Shown here one piece after another: positions 3,307 to 59,766 of a DNA stretch of 64,000 bases; position 1 is the first letter of the stretch; every line of letters starts with the position of its first letter. The stretch covers positions 9,277-73,276 of the forward strand of contig JAKLGH010000004.1 in the NCBI GenBank assembly GCA_022710775.1, written 5' to 3'. The stretch is from Patescibacteria group bacterium (GTDB lineage: Bacteria > Patescibacteriota > Minisyncoccia > Minisyncoccales > UBA5738). The position numbers were made by a program, and so were the translations under genes. The notes under the pieces are model-generated. The model made no database searches, was not told the DNA's origin, and was given only the letters and a program-made list of their open reading frames with translations.

Positions 3307-3482
3307 GTTTTTTGGCAGGTGATGTTTAGCGCTATTTTTTAATTCGAATTAAAAAATTTAAATCATTCGCGAAAACCGAAAGTTTGGCGCGATGGCTGTT
3401 TTATTCAAAAAAACGTTCCCCGCTTAGCGGGGGCGTTTTTTTGTTCCTTTACTTAAAAATTTTTCTTGGTAGAATCCAAGCC

Positions 3483-4373
3483 ATGAAAGATGATTTAAAG
3501 CCAAAAAAGCGGCGCAGCTTTAAAAAGATCATTGCCGTAACCGTAGTGGCGAATATGCTGGTTTGGCTGGCTTTTTTCGAATTGTCGGCACAAGGGCTGT
3601 TGCGCGTGGAATTTTTCGACGTGGGCCAAGGGGATGCCGCGCTGATAAAAACTCCTTCAGGCGCCGACATACTGATTGATGGCGGCCCTGGCCTCGCGGT
3701 TCTGGAGGGGCTGGGAAGGTCTTTGCCGTTTTGGGACCGCGATATCGATCTCCTGATCCTGACCCATGCCGACCATGACCATTTGGCCGGATTGCTGGAA
3801 GTTTTAAAGCAGTATAAGGTAAAAAGCGTTCTTTGGAACGGCGCGATAAAAGATACTGCCGAATTTGAGGAGTGGGCCAGGCTTATTTTTGAGGAAAAAA
3901 GCGATATTTACATCGCCCGCGCCGGTATGCGGATAACTTTTGACCGGGAACCCGGCCATTTTATTGAAGTGCTTTATCCGGAGCAGGATTTATCGGGGGT
4001 TGCGGTAAAAGACGCGAACAACGGGTCGGTGGTAGTAAAACTGGTTTATGGAGAAAGCGAGTTTCTTTTTACGGGGGACATATACGGTTTTATCGAAGAT
4101 AGTCTGGCGAACGGAGATACCGATTTGGATGCCGACGTTTTAAAAGTTGCGCATCACGGCAGTAAAAATTCCGCGTCCGAACTATTTTTGAGAAAGGTTG
4201 ATCCCGATATTGCGGTTATTTCCGTCGGACGCAACAGCTATGGCCATCCCAGCGAGGAAATCTTGGAAATGATGGAAAAACATGGTATAAAAATATTCAG
4301 GACGGATATGGCCGGAGATATAACATTTACAACCGATGGTCAAAATTTAAGTCTAAAAACCGAAAATCAATAA
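3483..4373 (+). CDS. ComEC/Rec2-related metallo-beta-lactamase domain protein, membrane anchored
   Basis: HADHDH and HHGS motifs and one N-terminal TM. The in-frame ATG at 3483 is preferred over the TTG-extended track ORF starting at 3384. Confidence 0.65.
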   Translation: MKDDLKPKKRRSFKKIIAVTVVANMLVWLAFFELSAQGLLRVEFFDVGQGDAALIKTPSGADILIDGGPGLAVLEGLGRSLPFWDRDIDLLILTHADHDHLAGLLEVLKQYKVKSVLWNGAIKDTAEFEEWARLIFEEKSDIYIARAGMRITFDREPGHFIEVLYPEQDLSGVAVKDANNGSVVVKLVYGESEFLFTGDIYGFIEDSLANGDTDLDADVLKVAHHGSKNSASELFLRKVDPDIAVISVGRNSYGHPSEEILEMMEKHGIKIFRTDMAGDITFTTDGQNLSLKTENQ

Positions 4374-22560: not shown

Positions 22561-22631
22561 ATCGAGCACGGTTCGCATCTGTTTGGGGCTTTAACCGCCG
22601 CCAGATAAAAAAAATTCGAAAAATCAAAACA

Positions 22632-22687
22632 CGAATGTTTAAAACAAATTCAATGTTTTAAACATTCGGATTTCGGTATTCGGATTT
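22632..22687 (+). repeat. Hairpin + (A/T)TTCGG heptad element, copy 1
   Basis: Perfect 15-bp stem cgaatgtttaaaaca/tgttttaaacattcg (22632-22668), then ATTCGG-ATTTCGG-TATTCGG-ATTT. Ends 6 nt before the secY ATG. Confidence 0.6.
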
Positions 22688-22693
22688 ATTGCC

Positions 22694-33805: not shown

Positions 33806-33830
33806 AAATAAATGTTCGAAGCACGAAGCT

Positions 33831-33893
33831 CGAATGTTCGAAACAATTTTTGGAGGAACTTGTTTCGAATATTCGGATTTCGGACATTCGGTT
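33831..33893 (+). repeat. Hairpin + (A/T)TTCGG heptad element, copy 2
   Basis: 16-bp stem cgaatgttcgaaacaa/ttgtttcgaatattcg with a loop containing GGAGG, then ATTCGG-ATTTCGG-ACATTCGG-TTT. A half-copy aatgttcgaagc lies at about 33810. Confidence 0.6.
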
Positions 33894-33959
33894 TAAGCAA
33901 AGAGAAATGAAATGGAGCTAGAATTATCAATTAATCAATTATAATTAGTTTTCAAAGAA

Positions 33960-36833: not shown

Positions 36834-37445
36834 ATGACTACTAAAGAAATTAAACCAAAGACCGCGCCGAAGGTGCGCAAGGCGCCTGCCAAGGTTAAAA
36901 AGGAAGCGGAAATAAAAGGACAAGAGCAAAAAGCAATGGCCGAAACGGAAGAAACAAAAAAAACAGCGATGGGGGAGAAGGTTTCTGCCGTCGAGCCTGT
37001 TTCTGCGGAAGAAACCGGCGACTTGGCTGATGAGAACGGAAAAACCCCTAAATCAAACCGCTACTATGAAGCTGTCGGCCGCCGCAAGACCGCAACCGCG
37101 CGCGTGAGGCTTTTTACCAGGGGCGACAAATCTTTTGTTATCAACGACAAACCGCTGGAAAAATATTTTCCGGGTGCGATTTTCAAATCCGTCATTGAAG
37201 CTCCTTTGGTGAAAATGAATATTGTAGATCGCTTCAAGATAACCGCTGTTGTCAAAGGGGGAGGGATCAATGCTCAGGCGGAAGCGATCAGGCACGGAAT
37301 TGCCCGGGCCTTGGTGATGTTTAATCTTGATTTTAAGAAACGCTTGAAAAAATCCGGATACCTGACGCGAGATTCAAGGATGAAGGAAAGGAAAAAGCCC
37401 GGTTTGCGCAAAGCCCGCCGAGCGCCCCAATGGGCCAAACGTTAG
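36834..37445 (+). CDS. rpsI: 30S ribosomal protein S9 (K/E/A-rich N-terminal extension of about 75 aa)
   Basis: C-terminal GGGINAQAEAIRHGIARAL...KARRAPQWAKR. In-frame ATG at 36834. Confidence 0.9.
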   Translation: MTTKEIKPKTAPKVRKAPAKVKKEAEIKGQEQKAMAETEETKKTAMGEKVSAVEPVSAEETGDLADENGKTPKSNRYYEAVGRRKTATARVRLFTRGDKSFVINDKPLEKYFPGAIFKSVIEAPLVKMNIVDRFKITAVVKGGGINAQAEAIRHGIARALVMFNLDFKKRLKKSGYLTRDSRMKERKKPGLRKARRAPQWAKR

Positions 37446-37575
37446 CGAACGTTTGGTACTGAGCCCAGCAGGGCGAATGTGCCGAAAACAGCGAACGTTT
37501 GGTACTGAGCCCAGCAGGGCGAATGTGCCGAAAACAGCGAACGTCTGGTACTGAGCCCAGCAGGGCGAATGTGCC
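37444..37575 (+). repeat. Tandem direct repeat, 3 x 46 nt (third copy truncated or diverged)
   Basis: Units start at 37444, 37490 and 37536: agcgaacgtttggtactgagcccagcagggcgaatgtgccgaaaac. Each can fold as GGUAC-UGA-GCCC-AGCA-GGGC-GAAU-GUGCC. Confidence 0.85.
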
Positions 37576-51065: not shown

Positions 51066-52064
51066 ATGAAAATAGGCATTGATCTGGGCACAAGAAACAC
51101 AGTGGTTTTTGTACCAAAAAAAGGGGTTGTTCTGCAGGAGCCTTCGGTGGTCGCTGTTGATTTGGACGAGAACAAGATCTTAGCCGTGGGAAAGGAAGCG
51201 AATGAAATGATGGGCCGGACTCCCGATGCCATCAGGGTATACCGCCCGATGCGCGAAGGCGTGATCGCCGATTTTCGCGTAACCCAGGCAATGCTTCATT
51301 ATTTGATCAATAAAGTGGTGGGCCCGGTTAAATTCTTCAAACCCGAGCTTGTGATCAGCGTGCCGGCCGGGATAACTTCAACGGAACGCCGCGCCGTGAT
51401 CGAGGCCGGATTGAACGCCGGAGCCAAAGCGGTTTATCTTTGCAAAGAGCCTATTCTGGCCGCGGTTGGGGCGGGGATTCCCATCCATTCCTGTTCCGGG
51501 AACATGATCGTGGACATCGGCGGCGGCACGGCTGAAGTGGCGGTGATCTCGCTGGGCGGGATTGTCAACTTCCAGTCGCTTCGCGTGGCCGGAGATAAAA
51601 TGGATTCGGCCATTGCCGACTATGTTAAAAGAAAGCACAACTTGGCCGTTGGCGACCAGACTACCGAAGAGATAAAGATCAACATTGGAACGGCTTCTCC
51701 CGATAAAGAGCCTAAGATTTTAGAAATCCGGGGCCGCGACCTGATCAGCGGTTTGCCGCGAAACATAAAAATAAATTCCAACGAAGTGAGCGAATCGATT
51801 TCCGACGTGCTGTTTGAGATCGTCCAAACCATCAAAAATGTTTTGCGCGACACTCCTCCGGAGCTTTCCGCGGACATTATGGATAAGGGCATGGTTTTGT
51901 CCGGAGGAAGCAGCTTGCTGCGGAATTTGCCGGAACTGGTGACTCAATCCATCGGCGTGCCCTGTACTGTGGCCGACAACTCTCTTTTATGCGTAGCCAA
52001 AGGTACGGGAGCGGTTCTTGAGAACCTTGAGTTTTACAAGAAGAGCATCATGAACAAGAAATAG
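51066..52064 (+). CDS. mreB: Rod-shape protein MreB (paralog 1)
   Basis: IGIDLGTRNTVVF...EPSVVAV, actin-fold phosphate motifs (DIGGGTAEVAV). 332 aa. Confidence 0.88.
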   Translation: MKIGIDLGTRNTVVFVPKKGVVLQEPSVVAVDLDENKILAVGKEANEMMGRTPDAIRVYRPMREGVIADFRVTQAMLHYLINKVVGPVKFFKPELVISVPAGITSTERRAVIEAGLNAGAKAVYLCKEPILAAVGAGIPIHSCSGNMIVDIGGGTAEVAVISLGGIVNFQSLRVAGDKMDSAIADYVKRKHNLAVGDQTTEEIKINIGTASPDKEPKILEIRGRDLISGLPRNIKINSNEVSESISDVLFEIVQTIKNVLRDTPPELSADIMDKGMVLSGGSSLLRNLPELVTQSIGVPCTVADNSLLCVAKGTGAVLENLEFYKKSIMNKK

Positions 52065-56859: not shown

Positions 56860-57966
56860 ATGCTTAAATTCTGGGATAATTTCAAGAAACTGTTTTCCGA
56901 GGATATGGCGATCGATTTGGGTACGGCCAATTCCAGGGTTTATGTCCGCGGCCGCGGAATCGTGATCCAAGAACCGTCGGTGGTAGCCGTCAACCAAAAA
57001 ACCGGGCAAATACTGGCCGTCGGCGAAGAAGCGAAAAAAATGGTGGGACGCACTCCGTCCCATATCGTGGCAGTAAGGCCTCTGCGCTCCGGAGTTATCT
57101 CGGACTTTGAAGTGACGGAACAGATGCTCCGGTATTTCATTGAGAAAGCCCGGAAGAAAAAATTAATATTCAATATCCGGCCGCGGATAATCGTTGGTGT
57201 TCCTTTCGGAGTCACCGAAGTGGAAAAGAAAGCGGTAATCGATGCCGGCATATCGGCCGGGGCGCGCGAGGTTTTTTTGATCGACGAACCGATGGCTTCG
57301 GCTATCGGAACCCGTTTGCCGGTACAGGAAGCAGTTGGGAATTTCGTTGTCAATATCGGCGGCGGTACGGCTGAAATCGCGGTTATTTCGCTGGGCGGCA
57401 TCGTTTTGGGGAAGAGTTTGCGCGTCGCGGGCGACAAACTTTGCGAAGATATTATCCAATTTGTTCAGGAAGAATACAAGCTGCTGATCGGGGAGAGAAT
57501 GGCCGAGAACATCAAAATAGGCATAGGATTGGCTTACCAGGTTGACCAAAGCGGGCCGGTTCAAAAAGGCGTTGTTGGCGCGAAGAAACCTCCGAGGCGC
57601 GATTTTAAGATGCGGGGGCGCAATCTGGTGACCGGTTTGCCCGAAGAGATTGTGATTTCCGAGGATGAGATCAGGCGCGCCATCGAGAAGTCGGTTAAGC
57701 AGATCGTATCCGAAATTAAAATGGCCATTGAGGAAACACCGCCCGAATTGATAGCCGATATCATGTCCAACGGCATCTACTTGGCCGGCGGGGGGAGCCA
57801 GCTGCGGGGACTGGATGTATTGATAGAGAAAGAAACCCGTATTCCGGTCAAGGTCGTGGAAGATCCGATGACTTCGGTTGTCCGCGGCGCAGGAATGGTG
57901 CTGGAAAACCTGGACAAATTGCGCGAGGTCCTGATCGAAACCAAGGAACTGGAACCGCCGAAGTAG
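56860..57966 (+). CDS. mreB: Rod-shape protein MreB (paralog 2, with an internal insertion)
   Basis: MAIDLGTANSRVYV...EPSVVAV and NIGGGTAEIAV. 368 aa. Confidence 0.85.
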   Translation: MLKFWDNFKKLFSEDMAIDLGTANSRVYVRGRGIVIQEPSVVAVNQKTGQILAVGEEAKKMVGRTPSHIVAVRPLRSGVISDFEVTEQMLRYFIEKARKKKLIFNIRPRIIVGVPFGVTEVEKKAVIDAGISAGAREVFLIDEPMASAIGTRLPVQEAVGNFVVNIGGGTAEIAVISLGGIVLGKSLRVAGDKLCEDIIQFVQEEYKLLIGERMAENIKIGIGLAYQVDQSGPVQKGVVGAKKPPRRDFKMRGRNLVTGLPEEIVISEDEIRRAIEKSVKQIVSEIKMAIEETPPELIADIMSNGIYLAGGGSQLRGLDVLIEKETRIPVKVVEDPMTSVVRGAGMVLENLDKLREVLIETKELEPPK

Positions 57967-58023
57967 GGAGGACAGCTGATTAAGTCCATTAAGCTTATTA
58001 AGCAAAAGCCAAGAACAATAAAC

Positions 58024-58045
58024 CCGCGTAAACCCGCGGTTTTTT
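58024..58045 (+). terminator. Rho-independent terminator after mreB paralog 2
   Basis: ccgcg-N6-cgcgg followed by TTTTTT. Confidence 0.6.
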
Positions 58046-58065
58046 GTAAAAGAAAATGACGGTTT

Positions 58066-58593
58066 TTATCCGTCATATCGTACAAAATTTTCTGCCGGCT
58101 GCCAACCGTAAGAGCTTCCCTGCAGGCCATAGATATGGACTTCTTTTACCGATACGTCCGGCAGGCCTTCGCAAACAAAGCATGGGTCGTTGCCGCACTC
58201 ATGTCCTATGGGCGCCAAGGAACTGTCTTTTCGCAGCGACGTTCTTTCTTCGATCACCCAGAAGACTTGTCCAACTTGAGGCTGTCGTCCGCGGGTTCCC
58301 GGATAGAGCTGGCCGATCTTGATGGCTTTAACTTTGTAATTTGTTTCTTTAACTGTTTTTTTGGCCGTTTGTATCGCGATTAAATAAATATTTGTCGCAA
58401 CGATTCCAGCCGCTTCGGCGTAGATGAATGGCCAAACCGCCATAGCCTTGAAGGGCCAGCCGAAAAACAAATAGACCAAAAGAACAATTGAGGGTAGAAT
58501 TATCCATCGATTTCTTGTCGTACCAATTATAAACCCTCCAACCGCTAGCAAGGCGCCGAACAGGAACGCGGCGATCATGGTAAATATTTCCAC
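58066..58593 (-). CDS. Hypothetical membrane protein (175 aa: 3 TM plus a Cys-containing C-terminal domain)
   Basis: GTG start preceded by AAGGAGG. Has its own TTGACA-17-TAATGT promoter. C-terminal GHECGNDPCFVCEG. Confidence 0.55.
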   Translation of the reverse strand: MEIFTMIAAFLFGALLAVGGFIIGTTRNRWIILPSIVLLVYLFFGWPFKAMAVWPFIYAEAAGIVATNIYLIAIQTAKKTVKETNYKVKAIKIGQLYPGTRGRQPQVGQVFWVIEERTSLRKDSSLAPIGHECGNDPCFVCEGLPDVSVKEVHIYGLQGSSYGWQPAENFVRYDG

Positions 58594-58616
58594 TTCCGTA
58601 CCTCCTTATTATTTAC

Positions 58617-58645
58617 ACATTAACACTTTATTTTATTTTTGTCAA
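58617..58645 (-). promoter_or_regulatory. Sigma70-like promoter of the 175-aa ORF
   Basis: Minus strand: TTGACA, 17 nt, TAATGT. Confidence 0.5.
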
Positions 58646-58669
58646 CAAAAAAACTGCGTTGGCCGCAGT
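58646..58669 (-). terminator. Rho-independent terminator after the 55-aa ORF
   Basis: Minus strand: actgcg-gccaa-cgcagt followed by T7. Confidence 0.65.
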
Positions 58670-58690
58670 TCAATTCAAACGAAGCATTGT

Positions 58691-58858
58691 TTACTTTAGC
58701 TCCACTGCCAGTATTTTTCCCGGACAATCGGGAGATACCGCGGCATGGGCCGACTCGATCTTTTCCAGCTGACGCGAAGCTTCTCCGAACAAGTATATAT
58801 CAACGGTTCCGGTTTTTCCGCAATCTTCGCATTTCCATATTGCATTTGCCCGATTCAT
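58691..58858 (-). CDS. Small Cys-containing protein (55 aa, zinc-ribbon-like)
   Basis: Below the track cutoff: MNRANAIWKCEDCGKTGTVDIYLF...SPDCPGKILAVELK. GGAGG lies 7 nt before the ATG. Confidence 0.5.
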   Translation of the reverse strand: MNRANAIWKCEDCGKTGTVDIYLFGEASRQLEKIESAHAAVSPDCPGKILAVELK

Positions 58859-58906
58859 TTTCTTGCCTCCATTACTTGTCTATTTGTAGCATAAAAAAAC
58901 GCAGCG

Positions 58907-59275
58907 TCAATTTTCCGGGGGTAAATATGATGAAAAGCTAGTCCGTGTTGGATCTAGCTTTCTTGATTTTTCCTCGCAGTCCGGGTGGGGAAGACACAAC
59001 GGTCTTTTATCCACCGGCAAGGCGCCGTCTATCGCCCAGCCGCATACGGGGCAGACTTCGTAGCCCATCTGGTCGGCTAACTCTTTTTGCAGGTCGCCGG
59101 CCGCGAGATAGCGGGCCGTGCTGTCCGTTAAGGCCCATCGCGCCAGCAGGGCGGAAAGGTCGCTATTCAGTTCACCGTGGAATACCTTGGTATTCCGTTC
59201 GAGCCAGAATCCGGAGCGAAATAGCATTACGAGGATCATGGCGTAAATATTCCATCCAACATTCATTTCAATCAA
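58907..59275 (-). CDS. Hypothetical protein (122 aa: N-terminal TM plus a CPVC...C...C region)
   Basis: ORF track entry, visibly more G+C-rich than its surroundings. No family recognised. Confidence 0.45.
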   Translation of the reverse strand: MIEMNVGWNIYAMILVMLFRSGFWLERNTKVFHGELNSDLSALLARWALTDSTARYLAAGDLQKELADQMGYEVCPVCGWAIDGALPVDKRPLCLPHPDCEEKSRKLDPTRTSFSSYLPPEN

Positions 59276-59475
59276 CCCTTAAGTTTAATTTAATAATTAT
59301 AGAATAAATATTATCTTATGTCAAGATTAACAAACTTTCTGGTTTGGGTTAAACTGAATTTGTGAACGCGTTTAAAAACGTGCATTTTAACTTAAAAAGC
59401 TTAAAAAACTTAATAGGCTTAATGAGCTTAAAAGCTTGATTAACTTAGTAAGCTTGCTTATTGGCTATTCTTAAT

Positions 59476-59766
59476 ATGCTTTCCAAAGAAGAAACAAAAC
59501 ATATTGCCAAGCTGGCCCGTTTGGGGCTAAGCGAAACCGAAATAGAAAGGTACCAAAAGGATCTGTCCTCGATTTTGGATTACATTGAAAAACTAAAAGA
59601 GGTTGATATCAAAGGAACCAAACCATTTACGCATCCGATCGAAATATCCAACATAACCCGGATTGATAAGGCTAAGCCCCAGCCGACTGAAATCGCAAAA
59701 AAGCTTATCGATCTTATGCCCGGCCAAAAGGACGGTTATTTGAAAGTTAAATCAGTATTCGAATGA
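59476..59766 (+). CDS. gatC: Glu/Asp-tRNA amidotransferase subunit C
   Basis: In-frame ATG at 59476 gives 96 aa. HIAKLARLGLSETE motif. Overlaps the gatA start. Confidence 0.88.
   Translation: MLSKEETKHIAKLARLGLSETEIERYQKDLSSILDYIEKLKEVDIKGTKPFTHPIEISNITRIDKAKPQPTEIAKKLIDLMPGQKDGYLKVKSVFE

Follow-up and report, generated by a model that had tools for sequence, protein, structure and literature searches.

Repetitive extragenic palindromes of Proteobacteria (REP/BIME) and hairpins situated between cistrons are described kinds of inverted repeat in bacterial intergenic DNA, and the latter can give translational coupling or differential messenger RNA (mRNA) stability within operons. Inverted repeats of the insertion sequence (IS) type also enclose mobile insertion cassettes and miniature inverted-repeat transposable elements (MITEs), which consist of passenger genes or short DNA without a transposase, and some transposon ends carry multiple subterminal repeats in mirrored orientation. 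Contiguous short-repeat operators, exemplified by the omega heptads of pSM19035 and the 8-bp MetJ boxes, are bound cooperatively by ribbon-helix-helix repressors. Here we compare these systems with a locus in a 64,000-nucleotide stretch of DNA from a Patescibacteria group bacterium (GenBank assembly GCA_022710775.1, contig JAKLGH010000004.1, positions 9,277 to 73,276; this whole stretch is called the window below). In this locus three small genes, O175, O55 and O122, lie between mreB and gatC and are flanked by two phased short-period repeat arrays of opposite orientation, referred to as the left and the right arm (Table 1).

With moderate confidence, we interpret positions 58004-59386 as a genus-restricted islet of orphan genes situated within a native array hairpin of the mreB-gatC spacer. 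In most Paceibacterota the gap between mreB and gatC measures roughly 0 to 140 nt, and it is there that the islet would have lodged. The phased arrays would be the two arms of the hairpin and not the ends of the islet, with TAAGC-type units after mreB and GCTTA-type units before gatC. The islet would have left the arms 1.4 kb apart, one in the 3' untranslated region (UTR) of mreB and the other in the 5' UTR of gatC, and both arms would change by gain, loss and resizing of units (slippage), a process that would renew the core motif. Of the known kinds of element, the islet and the arrays most likely relate to extragenic palindromes and orphan gene islets.

Insertion of three genes between mreB and gatC

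The locus was compared with the loci of 80 related species, 75 of which were informative for the mreB-gatC junction; the identity of MreB to that of the nearest species representatives was 82-84%. In 58 of the 75 informative species gatC directly follows mreB, with a median gap of about 24 nt, so that the empty site, for which the initial annotation of the sequence had proposed to look, is the norm. The remaining informative loci either contain other inserts of 0.5-1.9 kb (five loci) or have no gatC within the downstream sequence covered (12 loci). The islet genes were found in none of these loci. The prevalence of the direct mreB-gatC arrangement shows that the order rseP-proS-mreB-gatC-gatA-O173 is ancestral and that the three genes are a lineage-specific gain. 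It was correctly noticed in the initial annotation that a plus-strand housekeeping run is interrupted here: the conserved mreB-gatCAB run is broken by three minus-strand genes. The higher G+C content ascribed to these genes was not found, the values being 45.6% for the islet and 47.2% and 46.3% for the two flanks. The window as a whole also has 45.6% G+C, and a foreign composition of the islet is rejected.

The genome belongs to the Paceibacterota, in the neighbourhood of Minisyncoccales and Nealsonbacteria. Over the 4.3 kb that were compared, from mreB to gatA, identical contigs are present in the NCBI assembly GCA_035453565.1, in the JGI sample 3300009771 and in one ENA assembly; digester and sludge are among the sample types in which they occur. 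A search of 5.8 billion proteins yielded 5, 7 and 1 clusters for O175, O122 and O55, respectively, and a profile built from the O175 family and run against 1.84 billion representative proteins returned only the family itself and one 89-aa fragment. All islet homologues that could be placed belong to one genus and lie between mreB and gatC, on the opposite strand. The islet is inherited vertically within one genus. Its gene content varies: locus L089 has an additional gene of 129 aa, L095 lacks O55, and in L098 O122 and O55 are fused. The three genes are real genes held by purifying selection, as judged from ratios of nonsynonymous to synonymous divergence (dN/dS) of 0.09-0.42 and from invariant Cys/His motifs. 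The ratios were 0.09-0.25 for O175, 0.24-0.42 for O55 and 0.19-0.36 for O122, compared with 0-0.07 for the neighbouring housekeeping genes. The locus represents a clean, datable gene gain in an ultra-small genome, in which a conserved two-gene junction acquired orphan genes that are under selection.

Synonymous divergence (dS) between the window and L005 is mosaic, with values of 0.18 for O175, 0.66 for O55, 0.59 for O122 and 0.07-0.27 for the flanking genes, and O122 of the window is nearer to that of L094 (dS 0.36) than to that of L005. This mosaic suggests that members of the genus have recombined within the islet.

The arms are inverted homologues

The left array consists of three copies of ATTAAG (57979-84, 57988-93 and 57997-58002), which are in exact 9-bp phase and directly follow the mreB stop codon (57964-57966). 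Array and motif scans covered the 64-kb window. Exact hexamers in triplicate at a fixed period of 7-11 nt occur twice in the 64 kb, as opposed to 0.02 times per dinucleotide-preserving shuffle; the three units with a spacing of about 9 bp that had been described to the left of the genes are therefore a feature far above the shuffled background. An array of opposite orientation had been described on the right, and Tandem Repeats Finder (TRF) detected it as a 9-bp tandem repeat at 59387-59455 (69 nt). RCTTR cores start at 59390, 59399, 59408, 59417, 59426, 59434, 59443 and 59452, which makes the right array, with eight RCTTR units (59390-59460), two units longer than first described. The heptamer RCTTAAT, which had been proposed as the unit of the arrays, did not hold up: only two of the eight right-hand units have this sequence, the plain heptamer is not enriched in the window (16 seen, 23 expected), and the repeating unit is an 8-9 nt sequence with an RCTTR core. 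Arrays of three RCTTR units with 8-9-bp spacing occur only at these two sites, on opposite strands, and were absent from the shuffled sequences.

The best alignment of the two arms is inverted and pairs 57974-58003 with 59399-59428 at 25 of 30 positions; the inverted pair with 15 of 17 matches that had been noted before is part of it. The inverted match has a score of 15, which was reached by none of 1000 shuffles (maximum 13), and the best match in direct orientation is at chance level (837 of 1000 shuffles). Inverted matches were also found in relatives (29/32 in L089 and 17/19 in L005). When the arms of the window were joined conceptually, the predicted RNA duplex between them had an energy of -35.4 kcal/mol (z = -6.8). 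The corresponding energies were -39.6 kcal/mol in L005 and -45.3 kcal/mol in L089 (z between -6.8 and -8.9 over the three loci), and the pairing was weaker in L095, L088, L093 and L094 (z -3.7 to -2.0).

The arms differ between lineages. The number of units in the right arm is five in L088, L089, L093, L094 and L098, eight in the window and nine in L005. In the left arm, ATTAAG with a period of 9 in the window is replaced by TAAGC with a period of 8 in L005 and L095, by AAGCAAGA with a period of 8 in L094 and by AAAAGCG in L093. The left spacer of the window diverges from that of L005 far beyond the neighbouring synonymous sites. Both arms are decayed in L093 and L094, and the right-hand array is missing in L097; few non-coding stretches are as well conserved as the gatC-proximal part of the right arm. 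The graded decay of the arms among lineages fits a turnover by slippage. Because slippage copies existing units, the core motif and the complementarity of the arms can persist without selection.

The arms can be assigned to the flanking genes for two reasons. In L005, L088 and L089 the left arm extends with its first TAAGC unit into the mreB stop codon, and both arms lie outside every promoter-to-terminator unit of the islet. The right array starts about 35 nt downstream of the -10 element of gatC; its position downstream of the divergent promoter pair (Table 1) places the right arm in the predicted 5' UTR of gatC.

Table 1. Features of the mreB-gatC locus in the window, and intact array hairpins in related species (positions preceded by a locus name)
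Feature	Position	Strand	Remarks
mreB	56860..57966	+	Last gene of the rseP-proS-mreB run, left flank; Pfam MreB_Mbl, E = 6.7e-129; synteny in 80 related species
Left arm	57974..58003	+	30-nt inverted-repeat partner, ATTAAG x3 at 9-bp phase (57979-58002); in the mreB 3' UTR between stop codon and terminator
mreB terminator	58024..58046	.	G+C-rich hairpin and T run; detected on the minus strand too; position kept in relatives of the genus
Terminator-like hairpin over the O175 stop codon	58056..58076	-	AAAATGACGG..CCGTCAT conserved in every genus member
O175	58066..58593	-	Orphan membrane protein (predicted) with invariant H-E-C-G-x-D-x-C-x-x-C-E motif
Terminator-like hairpin 3' of O55	58651..58671	-	
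O55	58691..58858	-	Small soluble protein (predicted), conserved CxxC...H...C, GGAGG upstream
O122	58907..59266	-	119 aa from ATG; invariant CPxCGW...CLPHPxC
O122 promoter (probably also that of O55)	59296..59324	-	Sigma-70 type, TTGACA, 17 nt, TATAAT; 12/12 consensus matches; kept in the genus
Likely gatC promoter	59327..59355	+	TTAACA, 17 nt, TAAACT; back to back with the O122 promoter
Right arm	59387..59460	+	Eight RCTTR-core units, 8-9-bp period; predicted gatC 5' UTR; ends about 15 nt before ATG
gatC	59476..59766	+	First gene of the gatCA-O173 run, right flank; Pfam GatC, E = 6.4e-16; no Shine-Dalgarno site
Array hairpin in L017	L017:5708-5812		
Other intact array hairpins	L071:6778-6915; L008:10825-10920; L042:7984-8094		

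Array hairpins are native to the spacers of these genomes

Strict short-period arrays were present in 29 of 458 spacers of these genomes, compared with one after shuffling, and covered 1.0% of the intergenic but 0.15% of the coding bases. Their units are specific to species and locus. In the spacers that contain a partner array, the partner was inverted in five cases and direct in none. The cassette-free relative L017 provides an example at the same junction: its 99-nt mreB-gatC spacer is made up of four copies of ACGAATT, a loop and five copies of AATTCGT, and its fold has a z-score of -6.5. Further array hairpins were found in L007, L008, L041, L042, L050 and L071 (z -3.3 to -6.4), and the window itself holds two intact ones, at 22600-22693 (z -6.7) and 33806-33900 (z -4.8). 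These two are of the TTCGGA type and mutually homologous, which makes them a small dispersed family. The arms of the array hairpins are built of inverted tandem units of 7-9 nt, and the intact hairpins extend from 2-10 nt past the upstream stop codon to, or almost to, the start codon of the next gene. No description of intergenic repeat arrays was found in the full text of the literature on Patescibacteria (Candidate Phyla Radiation, CPR). Hairpins of inverted short tandem arrays form a recurrent, apparently undescribed spacer architecture of Paceibacterota, which could bear on operon expression without Shine-Dalgarno pairing.

Array hairpins are similar to REP/BIME elements in being intergenic imperfect palindromes between genes of one operon, with the possibility of a stem-loop in the transcript. 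Capacity for stem-loop formation was found both for the intact counterparts (z -3.3 to -6.7) and for the duplex of the two arms at mreB-gatC (z = -6.8), the latter with arms that are split by 1.4 kb. At least one type of unit would also be dispersed in this genome, as judged from the two homologous copies mentioned above. In contrast to REP/BIME elements, array hairpins have arms that are themselves composed of tandem 7-9-nt units and allow pairing in more than one register; the unit sequence varies with locus and species, the GCTTA type occurs at a single site in the 64 kb, and the arms at this locus are far apart. No transposase of the RAYT (TnpA-REP) type was seen, although no search was aimed at one. 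With intercistronic hairpins that serve coupling or mRNA stability, the intact array hairpins share a span from stop codon to start codon, which is the geometry expected if terminating ribosomes open the stem; unlike in such hairpins, the arms are built of repeats, which is unusual, and those at mreB-gatC belong to different transcription units.

The intact array hairpins may act in intercistronic RNA, in translational coupling or in RNA processing, either of which would suit genes without Shine-Dalgarno sites. A more far-reaching proposal, to which we give little credence at present, is that the array hairpins constitute an undescribed class of intercistronic element in Patescibacteria lacking Shine-Dalgarno sites, which couples translation or directs RNA processing, and that the split arms at mreB-gatC might still pair in trans (predicted energy -35 to -45 kcal/mol). 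If this were true, pairing of TAAGC units in the mreB 3' UTR with GCTTA units in the gatC leader would keep a post-transcriptional link between genes that were formerly co-transcribed.

Short-period repeat arrays in the genome of a parasitic bacterium also bring to mind the tandem interspaced guide RNA (TIGR) arrays. These occur in Patescibacteria and are located beside a gene for the Nop-domain protein Tas; each 36-nt unit has two spacers, placed between its edge and loop repeats (PMC12045711). The array at gatC differs in having a 9-nt unit, no spacers and no Tas-like gene; the 9-nt period, the 69-nt span and the lack of a match to the Nop domain rule out a TIGR-Tas array.

Expression signals of the islet and of gatC

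Shine-Dalgarno sites were surveyed at the 45 gene starts of the window. By a loose test they precede all three islet genes (starts at 58593, 58858 and 59266) as opposed to three of the 42 host genes (Fisher p ~0.001). The O175 start codon is GTG or TTG and is located 7-8 nt after a GGAGG that is invariant in eight genomes of the genus. Reading of the sequence also revealed -35 elements upstream of O175 and O55. The orphan genes gained by this genome bear canonical expression signals that the host's own genes, with few exceptions, do not have. According to a published survey, an anti-Shine-Dalgarno motif was detected in only 48% of the 16S rRNAs of Parcubacteria (PMC9297842); the 64-kb window contains no 16S rRNA gene.

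The likely gatC promoter aligns with TTAACA, 16 nt, TATAAT in relatives, and the divergent promoter pair is conserved. In Rfam the gatC leader had no match with an E-value below 0.6, and all matches were far below the gathering scores. Its folding is not unusually stable either (z = -0.11), and together the two results give no sign of a known cis-regulatory RNA leader.

How well the proposed split hairpin accounts for the arms

In the favoured interpretation, an islet within a split native hairpin, the order of events is inferred: the hairpin would predate the insertion, but an intact TAAGC/GCTTA hairpin at an empty site was found in no genome. This and the following observations weigh against the interpretation. 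The internal promoter block is also found in the sister lineages L007, L009 and L097, where the arrays are different or absent, which means that the arms were either replaced there or arose later in the genus studied here. The inserts present at the mreB-gatC junction of five other species are not flanked by complementary arms (0/5). The idea that inserts at this junction are generally marked by complementary arms is thereby rejected, and the array hairpin is not a general landing pad. Moreover, the arms may have stayed strongly complementary over 1.4 kb in three lineages because they serve a function today, for instance in pairing or protein binding, and an RNA-level role of the intact hairpins has the standing of a proposal.

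A present function is the essence of a rival explanation that we regard as unlikely and of which the initial annotation had raised one form, multi-site binding arrays for a regulator: the arrays would be functional recognition sites, the TAAGC/GCTTA units being recognized on both sides by a protein or through RNA-RNA contact. The agent could be a DNA-binding protein that acts cooperatively and loops or insulates the islet, or an RNA-binding protein with the gatC leader as its target; alternatively, the mreB 3' UTR could pair in trans with the gatC 5' UTR. Recognition would explain why the core motif is kept on both sides across genomes in which synonymous sites are saturated (O175 dS > 2), why the arm-arm duplex is strong, why the arrays are specific to the mreB-gatC locus in the 64 kb, and why the gatC-proximal part of the right arm is so well conserved. 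The arrays are also made up of several contiguous 7-9-bp units, direct or inverted, like the operators of ribbon-helix-helix repressors. Those operators are placed over a promoter, but here the right array is situated 3' of the gatC promoter and the left one 3' of the mreB stop codon, and neither promoter of the pair is overlapped. No repressor of this type is recognizable nearby, and the islet contains no recognizable DNA- or RNA-binding domain. Conservation of the units is poor, with both period and sequence shifting between close relatives, and the excess divergence of the left spacer from L005, the decay of the arms in L093 and L094 and the lack of the right-hand array in L097 weigh against recognition. 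A leader RNA that is not unusually structured (z = -0.1) and belongs to no Rfam family also speaks against this explanation.

It had been suggested in the initial annotation that the inverted arrays may be transposon or cassette ends, and in its present form this explanation holds that they are relic terminal inverted repeats: genes and arrays would have arrived together, the arrays being the termini of a non-autonomous transposon, of the mobile insertion cassette or MITE type, that a transposase provided in trans mobilized a single time and that has stayed in place ever since. We consider this improbable. It is true that an inverted repeat brackets lineage-specific DNA and is nearly perfect in L089 (29/32), that mirrored multiple subterminal repeats are known on some transposons, and that the canonical promoters and the Shine-Dalgarno sites of the islet genes, the latter lacking in host genes, hint at a foreign origin. 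As in mobile insertion cassettes and MITEs, inverted repeats of about 30 nt enclose a few small genes but no transposase, and relatives have an empty site at this position. However, of four features by which membership in this class was judged, only the terminal inverted repeats are present (25/30 in the window, 29/32 in L089). Neither the window nor L089 has a direct repeat next to the arms, and hence no target-site duplication. A family resembling transposases was not found above threshold in the three islet proteins (Pfam, NCBIfam, PHROGs and PADLOC). The islet is confined to one locus in one genus, where it is inherited vertically, and no cognate IS is known.

The searches for a second copy led to the same result. 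The 64 kb contain no other GCTTA array, and O122 and O175 found nothing in viral contigs. A metagenome scan with a 16-mer of the right arm yielded 80 loci, of which 79 were unrelated single matches without arrays, so the right-arm array does not belong to a dispersed family; neither did the protein search in 5.8 billion sequences nor the profile search in 1.84 billion reveal another copy of the genes. The repeats are short-unit arrays, and in relatives the left one runs into the stop codon of the neighbouring mreB. A promoter block (TGTCAAGATTAACA) situated inside the arms is common to L007, L009 and L097, in which other genes are present and the arrays differ or are missing, and the base composition of the islet is not foreign. 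An integron gene cassette was also considered and is ruled out by the O122 promoter, the two terminator-like hairpins within the islet, the Shine-Dalgarno sites, the housekeeping neighbours and the presence of tandem arrays instead of attC-like sites. An insertion may thus be surrounded by inverted repeats that did not come from the termini of a mobile element; those at mreB-gatC find a better explanation as the halves of a structure native to the spacer.

Finally, it is very improbable that the arms are two unrelated slippage products, each spacer having grown its own array and the inverted resemblance being due to the palindromic AAGCTT core and to chance: short arrays with other units are common in the spacers of the clade, AAGCTT is self-complementary and the copy number differs between strains, but the inverted match exceeds all 1000 shuffles with the direct match at chance, the same inverted relation exists in L005 and L089, and the duplex z-score is negative in all seven genomes that have both arms.

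Proteins encoded by the islet

The minus-strand open reading frames (ORFs) of 175, 55 and 122 aa described in the initial annotation are present, the last one encoding 119 aa when counted from ATG. CxxC-type cysteines and/or transmembrane helices had been attributed to each of them. Conserved Cys/His motifs were indeed found, but O122 has only a short hydrophobic N-terminal helix, followed by a helical middle part, and O55 has no hydrophobic helix. In O175, three helices are predicted in the hydrophobic N-terminal third, together with a beta-rich C-terminal domain. Residues H131, E132, C133, G134, D136, C138, C141 and E142 are invariant among the relatives of O175, as are C72, C75, C91, H94 and C97 among those of O122, and the CxxC...H...C pattern is kept in the relatives of O55. 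O175 appears to be an integral-membrane protein, and O55 and O122 small proteins with putative zinc-binding motifs.

The lack of a recognizable family was confirmed, as Pfam, NCBIfam, PHROGs and PADLOC gave sub-threshold hits only. No solved structure was matched by the sequence of O175, O55 or O122, and the AlphaFold2 models were of low confidence. The lone hint as to fold is a weak resemblance of the C-terminal domain of O175 to SH3. A search for paralogues of the islet genes in the window found none.

Other observations at the junction and in the window

The mreB-gatC junction is a site of gene turnover. In L009 and L007 (L009:2748-2792, 3468-3512; L007:5040-5596) it holds a plus-strand gene of 175 aa with weak matches to an AbiEii-like nucleotidyltransferase and to PHROG_12854. 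In L009 a direct repeat of the shared promoter block, 45 nt long and 87% identical, lies on either side of this gene, and in L007 the junction also contains an unrelated small CxxC protein, encoded on the minus strand. Independent inserts with small genes occur in L032 (1.9 kb), L071 (0.74 kb), L075 (1.3 kb) and L083 (0.5 kb), none of them between complementary arms. L071 also has a long G+C-rich compound palindrome right after mreB. In L095 about 250 extra nucleotides, approximately 110-380 nt past the mreB stop, separate the mreB terminator from the end of the O175 homologue at its stop codon; this segment is rich in G+C hairpins and includes an assembly gap.

Elsewhere in the window, a 46-nt unit is repeated 2.9 times with 98% identity at 37444-37575 (TRF score 257), at the border of two predicted ORFs and followed by a terminator-like hairpin. 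The window also contains two MreB paralogues (51066-52064 and 56860-57966), which are about 5 kb apart and 43% identical, an arrangement that is kept in most of the related species.

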